Source: Planctomycetota bacterium
GTDB lineage: Bacteria > Planctomycetota > J058
Direction of reading: 5' to 3'
NCBI GenBank assembly: GCA_041690735.1
Contig: JAWLGW010000001.1
Span: 1-26,958, forward strand
Length of the DNA: 26,958 nt
Shown here piece by piece: positions 14,951 to 23,470 of this stretch (the first letter of the stretch is position 1; each line of letters starts with the position of its first letter). The notes below the pieces were generated by a model that made no database searches, had not been told where the DNA came from, and was given only the letters and a program-made list of their open reading frames with translations. The position numbers and the translations under genes were made by a program.

Positions 14951-16288
14951 ATGAGGCGAGCCGCGCCACTGGCGCTGCTGCTCACGACCGCAGGGGTCGT
15001 GCAGGGACAAGACGACGGGGTGGCGCCGGTCACCACCGCGCAGGACGCCACCGCGCAGGACGCGGCGGAGACCGCCCCCGCGATCGCGGACCCGGCGGTC
15101 GCCCCCGACGCGGCGCCGCCCTGGTACGAGCGGATCGAGGTCAAGCCGTTCAGCGTCGAGACCAAGGACGGCAAGTGGCGGCTCAGCCTGCGCGGGCGCA
15201 CCCAGGTGGACGGGCGGTTCGTCCCCAGCGACGGCGAGGAGGTCGACGACGGCTTCACGGTCCGGCGGGCGCGGGTCGAGCTGCGCGGCACGCTGTACGA
15301 GCGGGCGACGTTCGAGCTCGGCCTGGAGTTCGGCGGCACCAGCGACGCCGACCTGCGGAACGCCTACATCAGCCTGGAGCTGCACCGGTCGCTGACCCTG
15401 CGCGCCGGGCAGATGCTGCTGCCCTTCAGCGACGAGCGGATGACGTCGTCGAACTACCTGAATCACCCGGAGCGCTCGATGCTCGTGGCGCACATGGTGG
15501 GCCAGCGGGACATCGGACTGCTCGTCCACGGGCCGCTGTTCGGCAGGGCGCTGTATTACAGCATCGGGCTGTTCAACGGCGCCGGACAGAACGTGAAGGT
15601 CGACGTCGACGACGACCTCGACCTCGCAGCGCGCCTCGAGCTCCGCCCCTTCGAGGACGACGACCTGCGCCTCACCGCCAGCTGGATCTACAGCCCCTCG
15701 GACCCCGACCACCCCGGACCCAAGGACGTGCGCACCGTCGGCAACGAGCTCACCCGCTTCCTCGACTACGACGCGGGCAACGTCCAGCGCGGCCCCCGCC
15801 ACCGGGTGAGCCTCGGGGCCACGTGGGGGAGCGGGCCCCTCCAGCTGGGCGGCGAGGTCAACCTCGACCACTACGCCGACGTCGTCGCGAGCGGCGGCGA
15901 GCGCGACGACCTCGCCCACTGGGGGTTCCAGGTCGAGGCGAGCCACGTCTTCCTGGGCACGGTCGACCGCCGCCACTCGGGGCAACGGGTCGAGCCGGAC
16001 GTGCCCCTGTGGGACCCCGAGCACGAGTCCTGGGGCCCGGGCGCCTTCCAGCTCGCCCTGCGCTACGAGGAGTTCCACGCCGACGAGGACGCGCTCTCGG
16101 GCGGCTTCGCCGAGGGGAGCGACGTCGCCCGAGCCGTGACGGGGACGCTCCACTGGTTCTGGTGGAAGGAGGTGCGCCTCACCGCCTCCTACACCTACAC
16201 CCACTTCGAGGAGGCGGTGCTCGACGCCGACGGCGACCGGCACCGCGACGAGCACGCGGTCATCACGCGCCTGGCCTTCTTCTTCTGA
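14951..16288 (+). CDS. OprO/OprP-family (phosphate-selective) outer-membrane porin
   Basis: Signal peptide; DGFTVRRARVELRG, DLRNAYI, LRAGQ...PFSDE..TSSN...PERS, RDIG; terminal Phe (RLAFFF). Confidence 0.85.
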   Translation: MRRAAPLALLLTTAGVVQGQDDGVAPVTTAQDATAQDAAETAPAIADPAVAPDAAPPWYERIEVKPFSVETKDGKWRLSLRGRTQVDGRFVPSDGEEVDDGFTVRRARVELRGTLYERATFELGLEFGGTSDADLRNAYISLELHRSLTLRAGQMLLPFSDERMTSSNYLNHPERSMLVAHMVGQRDIGLLVHGPLFGRALYYSIGLFNGAGQNVKVDVDDDLDLAARLELRPFEDDDLRLTASWIYSPSDPDHPGPKDVRTVGNELTRFLDYDAGNVQRGPRHRVSLGATWGSGPLQLGGEVNLDHYADVVASGGERDDLAHWGFQVEASHVFLGTVDRRHSGQRVEPDVPLWDPEHESWGPGAFQLALRYEEFHADEDALSGGFAEGSDVARAVTGTLHWFWWKEVRLTASYTYTHFEEAVLDADGDRHRDEHAVITRLAFFF

Positions 16289-16468: not shown

Positions 16469-18496
16469 CTACCCTTCGCCCTCCGCCTGCGTCGTCTTCT
16501 CCGCCGCCAGCAGCTCCTCCAGCGCCGGGAGCGCAGTCTGGTCGGGGTCCTTCAGGTCGAACCGTCGTCCGCCCTCGCTGGGGCCCACCTCGATCCGATC
16601 CCAGCCGGCGCGCACCCGCTTGGCGCGCTCGCCCAGCCGGCCCAGCCGAGCGATCGCCAGGCCGCGCAGGCGGGCGCGGGTGGTCTGGGGCGGCTCGCTG
16701 CGGGCGCGCTGCACCCCGGCCGGGTCGAGGAGCCGGGCCACTCGCCCCTCCTGCTCCAGCCAGTCGTAGTAGCCCCCCTCCGCCGACAGCTCGTGGTACT
16801 TGAGGTCGACGACCTTGAGCCGCAGCCAGGCGGCGCGCACCGCGGGCAGCTCCGCCCAGTCGAGCTCCGCCTGCGCGGCCGCGCGCCGGGCGCGGCCGAA
16901 GCGCGCCCGCCCCAGCGCCGTGCGCAGGCGGGCGGCGACCGCCTCGGCGGGGGCGCCCGGCGGAGGCAGGGGCGCCTCCGGGGCGTGGCGTTCGAGGAGC
17001 GCGTTGATCGGCCCCCAGGCCCGCAGGGCGCTCCAGGCCTGCTCGGGCGTGCGCGCGGGCAGGGCGTCTTGCAGGGTGGCCCGCAGCAGGTCGAGCTTGA
17101 TCGCCCAGTCGAGCTCCCGAGCGAGGGAGGCGGGCTCCTCCTGCACCCGGCGCAGGGCGTCGTCCCAGCGGCGCAGGGCGTCCACCAGCTCGGCGGGCCA
17201 GTCGCCGTCGGCGCGGGCCCGGGCCCAGGTGGCCTCGAGGTAGCGCCGCTGCACCCCCGCCGCCGTGAGGGTCTCGCCGGTGGCGCGGTCGATGGCGACC
17301 GTCGCCTGCAGCGACAGGTCGGCGCAGGTGCGGCGGAAGGCGGCCAGGGGACCGTCCACCAGCTCGATCCGCGCGACCAGGCCGTCGAGGGCGCCGGCCT
17401 CGAGGGCCTCGAGCACCGCGGCGGTGGCGCCCAGCTTGAGGAGCGCCGAGGCCTCGGCCCGGTTGGCGTCGCCGCACAGCAGCTGCAGCCGCTTGCGCGG
17501 CGCCCGGTAGGCGAACAGGCGCTGGAAGAAGAACTCCTTGAGGTCGACCAGCGGCCGGGTGGGGCCGTACACGAAGGCCGCCGCCACCCGATCGGTGATC
17601 CGCCCCCGGGCCGACAGCTCGAACCGCCCCTCGGCGGTGAGGTGGCCCGCGCCGCACAGGAGCGGGCGCGTCACCAGGAACGGGACCAGCGCCGGCAGGT
17701 GCCCGGTGAACAGCACCTCGCGGGCGGTCAGGCTGAACCCCCAGGCGAGGGCCCGGAACAGCACCAGGAACAGGCGGGCCACGGCCCCCTGGCCCGGGAG
17801 CGGCCCCGGCTGACCGAGGTACTGGCCCGCGCCCACCAGGGCGCGCTGCGCGAGGCGCGCCAGGGCGCCCAGCAGCGGGAGCGGTGAGAGCACCTCGAGC
17901 AGGCCGTACGCCAGGGCCGCGACCCGCACCACCCCCACCACCGGCGCCGAGATCACCAGCAGGACCGCCAGGCCCAGGGCCAGGACCAGCGGGTGGAGGA
18001 GGTAGGCGAACAGGGCCCGGCGCAGGCCGCCGGGCCGCTCCTGCACCGAGTACGACTCGTGGCAGCCGTAGGCGTTCCCCGCCCGGTCCACGTTGTTCTT
18101 GAGCAGGAACACCTGCCCCGGGCGTCCCTCGCCCGCGAAGGCCGCGCTGGCGTCGGCCGCGGCCTCGCGCAGCAGCTCCTCCTGGGCGCGCCCCACGCAG
18201 GCCAGCTCGACGGCGCCGCGGCACTCGGGCGTGGCCCACTCCAGCAGCCCCACCTCGAGGTCGGCGAGCTGCGACAGCTCGAAGTGGATCAGCGAGCCGT
18301 CGCCGAGGAAGTCGCCTTCCTTGTAGTACAGGGCCTCGCAGGAGGGGAGCCGGCGGCGGAGGGCCTCCACCACGGCCTCGAACAGCTCCTTCTGGGTGGG
18401 CGAGGCGCCGCCCGGCTCGCGCGGCGTGAAGCCGAGGGCGTACTCGGTCTCGACGCCCTGAATGCGGAGGAGGCGGGCTGGCGCGGGCGAGGTCGT
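16469..18496 (-). CDS. PafA/Dop (Pup-ligase/deamidase) family protein, PafA-like, with a hydrophobic membrane insertion; probable non-canonical start
   Basis: RIQGVETEY, EWATPEC, LKNNVDRAGNAYGCHESY, LVPFLVTRPLLCGAG, RLQLLCGDAN..E....LKLGAT..VL, LDWAIK, VDLKYHEL, PPQTTRARLRG, KDP. The frame is open to a TGA at 18536-18538, but the first canonical start (GTG 18376/18373) lies after the GVETEY motif; ACG at 18496 is proposed. Confidence 0.88.
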   Translation of the reverse strand, partial: TTSPAPARLLRIQGVETEYALGFTPREPGGASPTQKELFEAVVEALRRRLPSCEALYYKEGDFLGDGSLIHFELSQLADLEVGLLEWATPECRGAVELACVGRAQEELLREAAADASAAFAGEGRPGQVFLLKNNVDRAGNAYGCHESYSVQERPGGLRRALFAYLLHPLVLALGLAVLLVISAPVVGVVRVAALAYGLLEVLSPLPLLGALARLAQRALVGAGQYLGQPGPLPGQGAVARLFLVLFRALAWGFSLTAREVLFTGHLPALVPFLVTRPLLCGAGHLTAEGRFELSARGRITDRVAAAFVYGPTRPLVDLKEFFFQRLFAYRAPRKRLQLLCGDANRAEASALLKLGATAAVLEALEAGALDGLVARIELVDGPLAAFRRTCADLSLQATVAIDRATGETLTAAGVQRRYLEATWARARADGDWPAELVDALRRWDDALRRVQEEPASLARELDWAIKLDLLRATLQDALPARTPEQAWSALRAWGPINALLERHAPEAPLPPPGAPAEAVAARLRTALGRARFGRARRAAAQAELDWAELPAVRAAWLRLKVVDLKYHELSAEGGYYDWLEQEGRVARLLDPAGVQRARSEPPQTTRARLRGLAIARLGRLGERAKRVRAGWDRIEVGPSEGGRRFDLKDPDQTALPALEELLAAEKTTQAEGEG

Positions 18497-18512
18497 CGGC
18501 GGGCGCGCCCCT

Positions 18513-18917
18513 CTACTCGCCGCCGCCGGGGGTGGTCAGGCTCAGCACGCCCTGGGCGCCGGGCAGGCGGGTCGAGGCGACCGCGCGGGCCACGGCGGGA
18601 TCGGCGGGCGCCAGCGCGGGGGCCGCCTCGGCCCCGGGGGCGACCGGAGCCGGCGCGGCCGGGGCGCCGATCCCCGGCTGGGGCGCACTCCGCAGGGCGG
18701 CCGCGACCGCCAGCGCGAGCAGCGCGGCGGCGCCCGTCGCCGCCACCAGGGGCTCGCTGGTAGCGCCCTCCAGCAGGGCGCTCGAGACGCGGGACAGGGA
18801 GTGCTGCAGGACCTCGAAGCCGTAGTTCATGGCCGCCTCGTTGCCGACGCCGCGGAGGACCTCGGAGGAGTCGTCGGTGGACGGTCTTAACGTGGCAGCG
18901 TCCTCCGTCTCCTGCAA
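18513..18917 (-). CDS. Small Ala/Pro-rich protein with one hydrophobic segment and C-terminal GGGE; candidate Pup-like modifier
   Basis: Strong GC3 bias; start TTG 18917 (SD GGAGG) or ATG 18830 (SD GAGG); ends ...LSLTTPGGGE-stop, 16 nt before the proposed PafA-like start. Modifier role is inference. Confidence 0.65.
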   Translation of the reverse strand: MQETEDAATLRPSTDDSSEVLRGVGNEAAMNYGFEVLQHSLSRVSSALLEGATSEPLVAATGAAALLALAVAAALRSAPQPGIGAPAAPAPVAPGAEAAPALAPADPAVARAVASTRLPGAQGVLSLTTPGGGE

Positions 18918-18980
18918 CCCTCCTCCGGGCCCGCGGTCGCGAGGGGGCGAGGCGGCCTCGTCGGGGGCGGCTGCAATTCC

Positions 18981-18986
18981 TATACT
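18981..18986 (+). promoter_or_regulatory. Putative -10 hexamer TATACT for the sigma54 activator gene
   Basis: Divergent intergenic region, 32 nt upstream of GTG 19019. Confidence 0.45.
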
Positions 18987-19018: not shown

Positions 19019-21331
<2,313 letters not shown>

Positions 21332-21334
21332 CGC

Positions 21335-22582
21335 TCACCTCGCCCGGGGCCCCACCGTCAGCGCCGGATCACCGTACAGGATCCCGCTGAGGGCCTCGCG
21401 CTGGACCTCGGCCCGCTCCTCCGGGGTGGACACGTTGGCCATGCCGAGGGTGTGGTAGGTGTCGATCGTCTCCCACAGGACCACGCCCAGGGGCTGCCCC
21501 TCGGCGAGGCGCTGCGCCACGTCCATGACCGCGCCGAAGCCGGCGCCGCCCCCCGAGGTGGGGTCGATCACGGTGGTCGCGCCCACGAACCCCGCCGCGC
21601 CGCTGGCGAGGGCGTCCTCCCCCAGGCGCAGCCCGTCGCCGGGGTCGCCCGCGTCGCAGGAGGCGGCCACCAGCACCGGCGGCCGGTCGCGGGGGAGCTG
21701 CGCCATTTGGGTGGCGAAGAACACCGCCATGCTCCCGCTCGGCTCGGCCGAGGTGAGGGCGGTGGGGCTGCCGTGGGCGACGAAGAACACGGCGCCCCGC
21801 GGCTGCTGCTGCAGCTCGGTGACCACCGTGTCGGAGGTCAAGGGCACGTCGCCCTGCAGGTCGGAGCTGGGGGAGTAGGCGCGGGTGACCTGCCAGCCCT
21901 GGGGGTCGAAGTAGATGGTGCGCAGGGTCTCGGCCCCCTGGGCGCCGTCGCCCGTCTTCACGATGTTCCCGGCGACCAGCAGCAGCTCGTCCCGCCAGGG
22001 CTCGCCCTGGGGGCGGGCGGCCTCGATCGCGCTCACGGCGGCGCGCACGTCGGCGGGGGCGCCGTAGGGGATCCGCCCCACCCGCAGCTCGGCCGTAAAG
22101 TCGGGGGCGTCGTCGTCCAGCTCGCCGTACAGCCCGTCGCCGTCGCGGTCCCATTCGCCGGTCAGGTCGGCGTAGTACAGGTCGCTGACGGCCGTGTGGC
22201 CCGGCGCGACGGTGCAGGTGCGGTAGGGGATCGCCTCGGGGGACCCGATCAGGAGCAGGTCGCGCGGGCCGCCGGCGCGGTAGTGCTCCACCAGCCAGGT
22301 CCGCAGCTCCTCGGCGCGGTCGCGCCCGGGGGCGTTCACCTGGTCCAGGGGCACGATCGTGACCTGCCGGCCCATGGCCTCGTGGGCGGCCACCAGGGGG
22401 CCGACCTCCCCCTCCAGTCCGGGCTCGAGCAAGATCACCGTCTCGGTGGAGGCTGGGACCTGGCTGGCGCTGGCGGGTCCGCCGCTGTCGCCGGAGGACG
22501 AGCCGCCGCCGTCGGCGCAGCCGGCGGCGCTGAGGGCGAAGGCGAGCGAGGCGATCGAGGCGGCGTAGGCGCTGCGGTGCAC
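21335..22582 (-). CDS. Peptidase C25 (gingipain/clan CD) family lipoprotein
   Basis: Lipobox LSAAG-C; LLLIGS...IP, SDLYYADL, ELRVGRIP, catalytic-type His (VAHG) and Cys (AASCDAG), GFVGAT, ILYGDPAL; SD AAGGAGG. Confidence 0.85.
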   Translation of the reverse strand: MHRSAYAASIASLAFALSAAGCADGGGSSSGDSGGPASASQVPASTETVILLEPGLEGEVGPLVAAHEAMGRQVTIVPLDQVNAPGRDRAEELRTWLVEHYRAGGPRDLLLIGSPEAIPYRTCTVAPGHTAVSDLYYADLTGEWDRDGDGLYGELDDDAPDFTAELRVGRIPYGAPADVRAAVSAIEAARPQGEPWRDELLLVAGNIVKTGDGAQGAETLRTIYFDPQGWQVTRAYSPSSDLQGDVPLTSDTVVTELQQQPRGAVFFVAHGSPTALTSAEPSGSMAVFFATQMAQLPRDRPPVLVAASCDAGDPGDGLRLGEDALASGAAGFVGATTVIDPTSGGGAGFGAVMDVAQRLAEGQPLGVVLWETIDTYHTLGMANVSTPEERAEVQREALSGILYGDPALTVGPRAR

Positions 22583-22711: not shown

Positions 22712-23470
22712 TCAGGCCCGGCCGCGCCGCCCTCGCGCCTTGCGCTCCTGGCAGCCGGCGATCGAGCAGCCGGCGCCCTCCTCGAAGCAGCTCGGGTGGT
22801 GGGGCGCGTCGCAGGCCGCGCAGTGAACGACGGGCGCGGCGTCGCTGAGGGCGTCGTGGCAGAAGGGGCACCGCAGGCCGGCGGGGGAGCGAGGGGCGGC
22901 GGCGAGGGGCGGCGCCGCCGCGGTCGGCGCGCCCTCGCGGGCCCGGACCCGCACCGGCACCGCGGGCGCCCAGGCGAGCTCCACCAGCGCCACCGCCAGG
23001 GCGCGGAGGCGCGCGACGTCGAGCCCCACCAGCCCGCGCGCCACGAGCTGGCCGTGGCGCACCTCGAGGCGCTCGAGGTCGAACCGGCGGGTCAGCTCCT
23101 GCGCGTGGGCCTGCCACCCCTCCGAGCTCGGCGAGAAGCGTAGGCCGCCGCCGAAGAGGCGCCCCAGCAGCCCCCGCGACAGGAGCAGGTGGAGGTCGCC
23201 CGAGGCTCGGCAGCGCACCTCGACCCGGCCGCGGCCGAGCCAGATCAGCTCCACGTCGCGCCCCTCGTGGTGGCCTAGCACCCGCGGCTTGCGGAACCAG
23301 GGCTTGCGGAAGGTGCCCTCCAGGGCGTGGGCGACCCGGAGCAGCGTCCCGCTGACCTCCTCGCGGCGGGAGCGGCGACGGCGGTCGTCGGTATCCGTGG
23401 CCGCGTTGGCGGCGCCCAGGGCGAGCACCTCGCCCAGGAAGCCCAGCAGCTCGCCGATCAAGAGGAGCAT
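22712..23470 (-). CDS. Prokaryotic RING-finger (Prok-RING_1-like) protein, paralog 1
   Basis: C-terminal C-x2-C-x12-C-x2-C-x3-HH-x2-C-x6-C-x4-C (22751-22870); hydrophobic N-terminus. Confidence 0.75.
   Translation of the reverse strand: MLLLIGELLGFLGEVLALGAANAATDTDDRRRRSRREEVSGTLLRVAHALEGTFRKPWFRKPRVLGHHEGRDVELIWLGRGRVEVRCRASGDLHLLLSRGLLGRLFGGGLRFSPSSEGWQAHAQELTRRFDLERLEVRHGQLVARGLVGLDVARLRALAVALVELAWAPAVPVRVRAREGAPTAAAPPLAAAPRSPAGLRCPFCHDALSDAAPVVHCAACDAPHHPSCFEEGAGCSIAGCQERKARGRRGRA

Follow-up and report, generated by a model that had tools for sequence, protein, structure and literature searches.

A Glu-tailed, Pup-like small protein beside a predicted membrane-associated PafA/Dop-family enzyme in Planctomycetota: a probable proteasome-independent pupylation-type system

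What is a small protein ending in GGGE doing directly upstream of, and co-directional with, a gene of the PafA/Dop ligase family in a planctomycete? The pair lies in a 26,958-nucleotide stretch of Planctomycetota DNA (contig JAWLGW010000001.1, here contig C1, positions 1 to 26,958; hereafter the window) with a GC content of 74%, from an 84%-complete genome in 1192 contigs. A first-pass annotation had noticed the arrangement and proposed a new system with a third class of Glu-linked modifier, distinct from both Pup and UBact. The arrangement is confirmed by the open reading frame (ORF) sequence and by a match of the larger protein to PF03136. Judged from sequence, the adjacent enzyme very probably has this small protein as its cognate Glu-terminal modifier, and the two probably make up a functional pupylation-type conjugation system of Planctomycetota that is anchored in the membrane and independent of the proteasome.

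The modifier gene, a long form as described below, occupies 18513..18830 on the minus strand and encodes 105 aa from ATG 18830, with the stop TAG at 18513–18515. The codons of the C-terminal GGGE, the last of which specifies the presumed conjugating Glu, are at 18516..18527 (minus strand), and this tail is kept in 10 family loci. Approximately 22 relatives of the ligase were collected (44–68% identity), every one from Planctomycetota assemblies, and 13 related genome loci (L006–L018), likewise all planctomycete, were examined. The frame ending just upstream of the ligase terminates in GGGE in the window, L006, L007, L008, L009, L010, L011, L013, L014 and L017, in GGAE in L015 and in HGE in L018; no tail frame was found in L012 or L016. 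A GGGE-ending frame lies 13–250 nt upstream of the ligase in 10 of the 13 homologous genome loci. Of the 62,142 frames in the window's genome (stop to stop, 50 aa or longer), only 8 end in GGGE (1.3e-4 per frame), and because it nevertheless recurs at these loci, a chance explanation for the tail next to the ligase is excluded. The check that the first-pass annotation had proposed, whether ORFs upstream of homologous ligases keep a terminal GG[EQ], is therefore positive.

The association extends across the phylum. When 401 Planctomycetota genomes were screened for PF03136, it was present in 42 (about 1 in 10, single- and two-ligase loci together), and in all 10 genomes of the window's own family. 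Thirty loci were fetched for inspection, and nearly all the single-ligase ones have an ORF of 45–62 aa upstream. Approximately 17 of the single-ligase loci are more distant, and their upstream ORFs of this size end in G[GA]E, DGE or HGE. The endings observed in single-ligase loci are GGGE, AGGE, RGGE, KGGE, DGGE, GGAE, KGAE, RGAE, SGAE, MGAE and SDGE; wherever such a locus has a tail ORF, the last residue is Glu. An alignment of the 23-member phylum-wide small-protein family (A7) has the consensus I..DA...P..YV..W.VPGGGE. Two-ligase loci, in contrast, end in Gln: GGQ in L029 (1234–1443) and VGQ in L019 (4793–4999), the latter also encoding an AAA ATPase with a proteasomal OB domain. This division between Glu with one ligase and Gln with two is the pattern expected if only Gln tags have to pass through a Dop-type deamidase, and it agrees with the earlier remark that the window's modifier, which already ends in Glu like every other single-ligase tail, needs no deamidation. 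A short-form system is also present in a cultured planctomycete, 'Ca. Uabimicrobium amorphum' (L040, 3075–3209, minus strand), where the tag of 45 aa ends in VVPKGGE and is annotated only as 'hypothetical protein' (WP_173013340.1).

The small ORF had been given a length of 105 to 134 aa, and both lengths exist. From TTG 18917 it spans 18513..18917 (minus strand), 134 aa with the C-terminus LSLTTPGGGE. However, ATG 18830 appears to be the better start, because relatives begin at the equivalent position and because TTG 18917 belongs to a conserved non-coding motif. The N-terminus reads MNYGFEVLQHS.. in the nearest relatives, as against MSASSFEVL.. (MSASSFEVLLQS..). The ORF is read as coding because its GC content by codon position (0.81/0.65/0.93) is as expected of coding DNA at 74% GC, and because the nucleotide differences between the modifiers of the close pair L007 and L010 are distributed 9/10/25 over the three codon positions, with 22 synonymous and 17 non-synonymous codon changes over the full length including the N-terminal extension. 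The window modifier contains no lysine, and its predicted tryptic remnant comprises 17 residues (LPGAQGVLSLTTPGGGE). Residues 28–47 (LVAATGAAALLALAVAAALR; 18690..18749, minus strand), followed by an Arg, form a hydrophobic helix that is a candidate membrane anchor. The best 17-residue Kyte–Doolittle window in this segment scores 2.28, in keeping with the hydrophobic segment seen in the first pass.

Two forms of the modifier occur within the family. The long form, of 94–117 aa, is found in the window, L006, L007, L010, L013 and L017, and the short form, of 50–55 aa, in L008, L009 and L014 (for example MTPNDTHPSPTVSDPRIERKLGDALLDELVAQTLDPEARRVLALEVPGGGE). The long form differs by an N-terminal amphipathic segment and the hydrophobic helix, which ends in Arg or Trp-Arg, is equivalent in all six long-form loci and is absent from the three short ones. 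The C-terminal regions of the two forms align with each other (hhalign E 6.3e-5), and both forms stand behind one promoter-like motif in the same position.

The adjacent PafA/Dop-family ligase homolog extends over 16469..18466 on the minus strand, approximately 665 aa from the conserved RIQGVETEY, and the HMM match begins from profile position 1 at 18466. It matches PF03136 with 246.9 bits (cut-off 25; E 5.5e-73). An AF2 model built on 16 homologs has a pLDDT of 89.6 and a pTM of 0.89, and the best Foldseek matches to it are PafA–Pup (4bjr) and Dop (4b0r), with 7oxv and 7oxy also returned (E 1e-21 to 1e-23, target-normalised TM 0.75–0.84). When the protein is aligned with one Dop, several PafA-like proteins and two planctomycete paralogs (A6), the motifs GVETE, EWATPEC, KNN.D..GN.YGCHE, PFLVTR..GAG and RLQ-x4-D (RLQLLCGD) are kept, as are the arginines R269, R289 and R306. 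The ligase carries the GhExE of strand 1, the acidic residues of strands 2 and 3, the Arg fingers and the [QH]x4D of strand 6 by which the family is recognised. The [HQ]x[NH] motif of strand 4 is not found in this form: the window ligase and most of the clade have HES, which is also seen in the Dop-like outgroup P0030, and clade member P0021 has HEN. The position of the catalytic Asp of PafA and Dop on strand 2 is taken by the Glu of HFE, invariant in the clade, and D.KE.F replaces the NTRDEPHAD loop. The Dop loop (~40 aa) is not present in the window ligase, which in A6 has a short LYYK segment where P0026 and P0030 carry the loop. By its NCBIfam equivalog scores, given below, the enzyme is neither a PafA nor a Dop ortholog, and it forms a third branch of the family. 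In agreement with this, single-copy planctomycete homologs have been used as the outgroup to PafA and Dop by Hecht et al. (PMC7947786).

Right after GCHESY, at core strand 4, alignment against PafA and Dop, the AF2 model and hydropathy agree in placing a hydrophobic insertion of ~110 aa (17714..18043, minus strand). AF2 builds it as helices at residues 150–195, 202–220 and 230–253. It is strongly hydrophobic in all clade members, and in other members of the phylum, where the motif pattern was found on both flanks, the gap from HxN to PFLVTR is 106–124 aa. Alignment, model and hydropathy together support a ligase that is membrane-associated through this insertion. A second helical insertion, of ~80 aa (16823..17071, minus strand), is located in the C-terminal domain and splits the genome-level Pfam match into two parts, profile positions 1–359 and 368–440.

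The 5' end of the ligase gene is unusual. Its first strand, RIQGVETEYALGF, is encoded upstream of GTG 18373, the first canonical start, and GVETE (the GhExE ATP/Mg motif; 18443..18457, minus strand) lies upstream of every canonical start codon, so that the ORF counted from that codon (16469–18373, minus strand) would lose the GhExE strand. GTG 18373 is 139 nt past the modifier stop and the conserved N-terminus at 18466 is 47 nt past it; a gap of 16 nt, as first proposed, rests on a hypothetical ACG start and is not retained. No ATG, GTG or TTG occurs in the ligase frame between the in-frame TGA at 18536–18538 and 18373. The frame is open from 18535, is +1 relative to that of the modifier and opens 20 nt before the modifier stop. 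Eight relatives have GTG or ATG four codons before the Gly of GxETE (MRIVGLETEY), where the window has CTC and L006, the closest relative, has CTG. The sole near-cognate codon in the window, ATT 18463, follows two codons after the CTC. The ligase of L015 is likewise without a canonical start and offers only ATC or CTG. The regions free of ATG, GTG and TTG before GxETE are 18373–18538 (minus strand) in the window, 2959–3012 in L006 and 2782–3009 in L015. The stretch upstream of GTG 18373 is nevertheless kept as protein (18 of 31 residues), and the ligase is 68% identical to that of L006 with every motif kept. We read the absent canonical start as non-canonical initiation or coupling and not as decay, because the frame is intact, the motifs are kept at this level of identity and the segment upstream of GTG 18373 is conserved. 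A read check of the start region drew on one soil run with 7% of the sampled words; its contigs are fragments of relatives and leave 18433–18637 uncovered. At L006 2647–5025 (= L003 5560–7938) the modifier and ligase stand in one frame, separated by one TAG and then 18 codons, again with no canonical start; read-through of that stop would yield a modifier–ligase fusion.

The genome holds one ligase gene. Searches of it for the 20S proteasome (PF00227), the ARC OB domain (PF16450) and canonical Pup (PF05639) returned no match at 84% completeness; the window, too, has no proteasome or ARC/Mpa gene, and no canonical Pup was detected elsewhere. Five related genomes have one ligase and one PF00227 match each, and both of the two matches checked are HslV.

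How the small protein relates to Pup depends on which members of the family are compared. No Pup match in Pfam or NCBIfam (E up to 10) was obtained for the window modifier or its 33 relatives. A word-based search with the small protein recovered only itself. When the tail alignment was run exhaustively as an HMM against 1.84 billion representatives, nine proteins came back, all of this family and none a Pup; against PDB sequences the tail profile gave low-complexity noise only. A search of the window's genome with the A7 profile gave no significant match to a second modifier, and it also missed the divergent protein of the window itself. The phylum-wide A7 profile, on the other hand, aligns with the Pup profile (hhalign probability 66%, E 5.5e-5) over 29 end-anchored columns that cover the C-terminal helix and tail of Pup. 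The short forms of the window's family also align with Pup, profile to profile (E 0.009), and the short form P0039 shares 11 of 29 end-anchored residues with a Frankia-group Pup (DALLDELVAQTLDPEARRVLALEVPGGGE vs DSLLDE-IDDVLEENAEEFVRGYVQKGGE). These alignments lend moderate support to the view that the small proteins are remote relatives of Pup, with the window protein at the most divergent end of the family. The window protein has the terminal GG[EQ] of Pup and a gene adjoining a PafA-family gene. It departs from the usual Pup, of 50–90 aa and free of hydrophobic segments, by its 105 aa and 20-residue hydrophobic helix; L008, L009, L014 and the phylum-wide relatives, at 45–62 aa, have no hydrophobic segment. 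UBact, for which Lehmann et al. reportedly gave the tail R[TS]G[EQ] in 2017, and which is linked to Mpa, Dop, PafA and the proteasome, is set apart by tail and context: here the tail is PGGGE, there is no NCBIfam match, and neither an ARC OB domain nor a 20S proteasome was found in the genome.

A system of this kind has been on paper since 2008. Iyer, Burroughs and Aravind, whose profile searches recovered planctomycete Pup orthologs, described Pup orthologs ending in G[EQ] that adjoin PafA homologs in Rhodopirellula and Plesiocystis; the ligases there carry a four-transmembrane (4-TM) insertion after core strand 4 and are unlinked to proteasome genes, and pupylation was suggested to regulate membrane-associated proteins (PMC2588565). 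Since those defining features are found here and the phylum-wide family aligns end-to-end with Pup, neither the novelty of the system nor the third class of modifier claimed in the first-pass annotation is upheld. Our identification of the window locus with the 2008 clade follows from these shared features. No later experimental work on the planctomycete system was found in a literature search.

Put together, these observations suggest the following mechanism. The 105-aa protein would be a divergent Pup-like modifier whose Pro/Ala-rich body is disordered and leads into a short C-terminal helix, with the GGGE tail left free. The 110-aa hydrophobic helical insertion would anchor the single-copy PafA/Dop homolog to the inner membrane on its cytoplasmic side. 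By analogy with PafA, the enzyme would use ATP/Mg (GhExE, HxS, the Arg fingers and QxxxxD) to activate the terminal Glu by phosphorylation of its gamma-carboxylate; the epsilon-amines of lysines on membrane-proximal proteins would then receive the modifier. With Glu already in place, no Dop deamidation step would be required, and the same enzyme may also reverse the conjugation. The modifier of this sublineage would have acquired the N-terminal extension carrying its hydrophobic helix, which may lie in the membrane or dock on the membrane helices of the ligase. Because no 20S proteasome or ARC was found, the tag presumably serves regulation or localisation and not degradation. The analysis shows the gene pair, the fold, the motifs, the insertion, the conserved tail and the lack of detected proteasome genes; catalysis, the lysine acceptor, the cytoplasmic-face topology and the non-degradative role are what we infer.

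Several observations weigh against this reading. The clade is known from sequences and models, and absence of the proteasome is not proven for a genome that is 84% complete. The essential N-terminal strand of the window ligase has no canonical start codon. The presence of Glu in place of Asp at the catalytic position and of Ser in place of Asn in HxN, together with the replaced NTRDEPHAD loop, means that the chemistry or the acceptor could differ. NCBIfam scores fall far under the equivalog cut-offs (TIGR03686 PafA, 203 vs 551 bits; TIGR03688 Dop, 160 vs 492). The small protein of the window matches no Pup or UBact model, the profile of its long-form subfamily gives no direct alignment with Pup, and the homology, to which we assign moderate strength, is transitive and rests on 17–29 columns. 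Four single-ligase loci (L012 = L050, L016, L038 and L041) have no tail ORF within the fetched flanks. Finally, co-folding was approached by proxy through the in-frame fusion of L006 (P0167), with its TAG read as Gln and the alignment rows (A9) formed by the ligase alignment plus the window's two pieces; the model did not dock the modifier, leaving residues 1–115 at pLDDT <50 and the ligase fold unchanged. An alternative alignment with the small proteins as separate rows (A8) was dropped, since MAFFT scattered them.

Some of these points could be taken to mean something else. If the small protein were a new modifier class, unrelated to Pup and UBact and merely converged on a GGE tail, the lack of a Pup or UBact match in Pfam or NCBIfam for any of the 11 + 23 members, the empty comparison of the window's subfamily profile with Pup, the exhaustive search that returned the family itself and no Pup, and a long form about twice the length of Pup with a hydrophobic helix would all follow. 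However, the phylum-wide family matches Pup's C-terminal helix and tail with no shift of register down to the final residue, long and short forms share position, promoter motif and tail region, the partner is a PafA/Dop homolog, and Pup orthologs had already been recovered from planctomycetes (PMC2588565); convergence is accordingly rated as quite unlikely. Decay of the window copy, in which the ligase would have lost its start codon and its activity, has only a slim chance of being correct. It would account for the CTC at the start-equivalent position and for a stretch from the in-frame stop to GTG 18373 that is free of ATG, GTG and TTG. Yet the 665-codon frame is intact, and at 68% identity to its closest relative the enzyme retains all catalytic motifs; this relative and L015 also lack a canonical start (CTG in the former), the 31-residue segment upstream of GTG 18373 is conserved at 18 positions, and an in-frame ATT is available at 18463.

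The enzyme could instead be mainly a Dop-like hydrolase, or the small protein a regulatory or assembly subunit with its tail in the active site, with no conjugation in either case. Phmmer does place Dop slightly over PafA, the residues beside the catalytic position are mixed (A-T-P, the Ala being PafA-like and the Pro Dop-like), and in the analysis of Hecht et al. planctomycete homologs fall in neither the PafA nor the Dop clade (PMC7947786). This proposal is nonetheless improbable: there is no Dop loop, a tail that is already Glu leaves nothing to deamidate, the genome has no second ligase to make conjugates for removal, and the same authors argue that the ancestral enzyme was a ligase (PMC7947786). 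The acceptor, rather than the reaction, is altered in another proposal, by which the terminal Glu is joined to a non-protein membrane amine such as phosphatidylethanolamine or an ornithine/lysine lipid, as in Atg8–PE lipidation. The predicted membrane insertion of the enzyme, the replacement of the PafA target-contacting loop region and of the NTRDEPHAD loop, the Asp-to-Glu change at the catalytic base position, and the frequent use of small amines by the carboxylate–amine ligase superfamily (PMC2588565) are compatible with it. Nothing supports it directly, though; short modifiers elsewhere in the phylum resemble ordinary Pup, and a membrane helix of the long form's own may make lipidation redundant, so that we hold it to be very unlikely. 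A broader variant, in which the tag is itself an integral or peripheral membrane protein and the embedded ligase joins its cytoplasmic GGGE tail either to lysines of soluble targets, thereby tethering them by a covalent and perhaps reversible bond, or to a lipid amine in the manner of Atg8–PE, is less remote, though still rather doubtful; the tethering could apply only to the long form with its hydrophobic helix. If true, either tethering or lipid joining would be a bacterial protein-localisation mechanism without characterised precedent. We thus retain a membrane-anchored, pupylation-type conjugation system as the probable reading.

The surroundings of the gene pair are conserved on one side. 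A sigma54 enhancer-binding protein with TPR, GAF, AAA+ and winged-HTH domains (19019..21331, plus strand; Pfam) is divergent from the modifier–ligase pair, and a divergent sigma54 activator also occurs in L003, L004 and L005. The activator start sequence is conserved in L007–L010 and L013 too, six loci with the window, which indicates that the gene is present there as well. Sixty-three nt upstream of ATG 18830 is a bipartite motif, TTGCA-N14-CTGCCA (18893..18917, minus strand), with one match in the window against 0.00 expected. In the form TTGCA-N14-[CG]TGCCA it appears exactly once per family locus, 35–66 nt upstream of the modifier start; besides the window these loci are L003–L010, L013, L014, L017, L046 and L048. 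It is neither a -24/-12 sigma54 site nor a consensus sigma70 promoter, and has the appearance of a promoter- or operator-like element of the modifier–ligase operon. No consistent canonical sigma54 site (GG-N10-GC) was found upstream of the small ORF at 11 loci, a scan for sigma70 promoters and terminators found none, and Rfam gave no match. A second conserved element, AGTATAGGA (18978..18986, minus strand), is a 9-mer that the window shares with L006, L009 and L013; other loci carry variants of it. It forms an AT-rich island in the GC-rich spacer and reads TATACT on the opposite strand, 32 nt before the activator GTG 19019, where it is a possible -10 box of the divergent activator. The two elements look like back-to-back promoters.

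Genes downstream of the ligase are not conserved. A phosphate-selective porin O/P homolog (14951–16288, plus strand) is convergent with the ligase, and a peptidase C25 (gingipain-family) protein (21335–22582, minus strand) with the activator. A Prok-RING_1 zinc-finger protein is encoded two to three genes past the activator in the window (22712–23470, minus strand) and in L003 (1725–2465, plus strand), a relative of the same genus. The 6-kb flanks of L004 and L005 do not contain it, and for this reason it is probably local synteny and not part of the system.

Almost all that is understood of pupylation comes from Actinobacteria, in which it supplies the proteasome with substrates. Its planctomycete counterpart, with one membrane enzyme, a Glu tag and no proteasome or ARC, has stood since 2008 as a computational prediction, and its conserved tag gene is unannotated, or a 'hypothetical protein' where called at all. 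The findings supply constructs for asking what non-degradative, membrane-localised pupylation does, and the ligase is a natural outgroup enzyme for the question of PafA/Dop divergence.

Compared with the actinobacterial Pup–proteasome system (Pup, PafA, Dop, Mpa/ARC and PrcAB), the window shares the ligase fold, the ATP/Mg motifs and the adjacency of modifier and ligase genes, as well as a modifier that is disordered at its N-terminus, forms a C-terminal helix and ends in GG[EQ]. It differs in having one enzyme where Actinobacteria have the PafA and Dop pair, a Glu tail instead of Gln, no ARC or 20S found, the membrane and 80-aa insertions, Glu for the catalytic Asp and Ser in HxN; and PF05639 does not recognise the window modifier. 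Corynebacterium carries out pupylation without a 20S proteasome while retaining a soluble PafA, Dop and ARC. Tagging without 20S degradation is thus common to both, whereas in the window's genome the only enzyme is the membrane one and the search for ARC came back empty. The UBact and two-ligase loci (e.g. L019 and L029) likewise have a protein with a terminal G[EQ] adjoining PafA/Dop homologs outside Actinobacteria, but in those loci two ligase paralogs are accompanied by an AAA ATPase with a proteasomal OB domain, and the tags end in Gln; none of these features is seen in the window.

The closest counterpart is the system described in 2008, with which the window has in common the transmembrane insertion after strand 4, the adjacent G[EQ]-tailed protein, the lack of proteasome linkage and the phylum. 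There, the modifier was reported at 50–90 aa and a separate membrane-protein gene is linked; here, the modifier has 105 aa with a hydrophobic helix of its own, and in place of that gene a sigma54 activator is divergently linked. With the activator and the convergent porin as neighbours, the sole linked hydrophobic product in the window is the long modifier itself. Relative to the 2008 description, what appears to be new from the sequences is the long modifier form with its conserved hydrophobic helix, the linkage to the activator and the strict Glu end in loci with one ligase. The two ligase substitutions (Asp to Glu and Asn to Ser), the lack of canonical starts and the conserved motifs between the divergent genes likewise go beyond that description.

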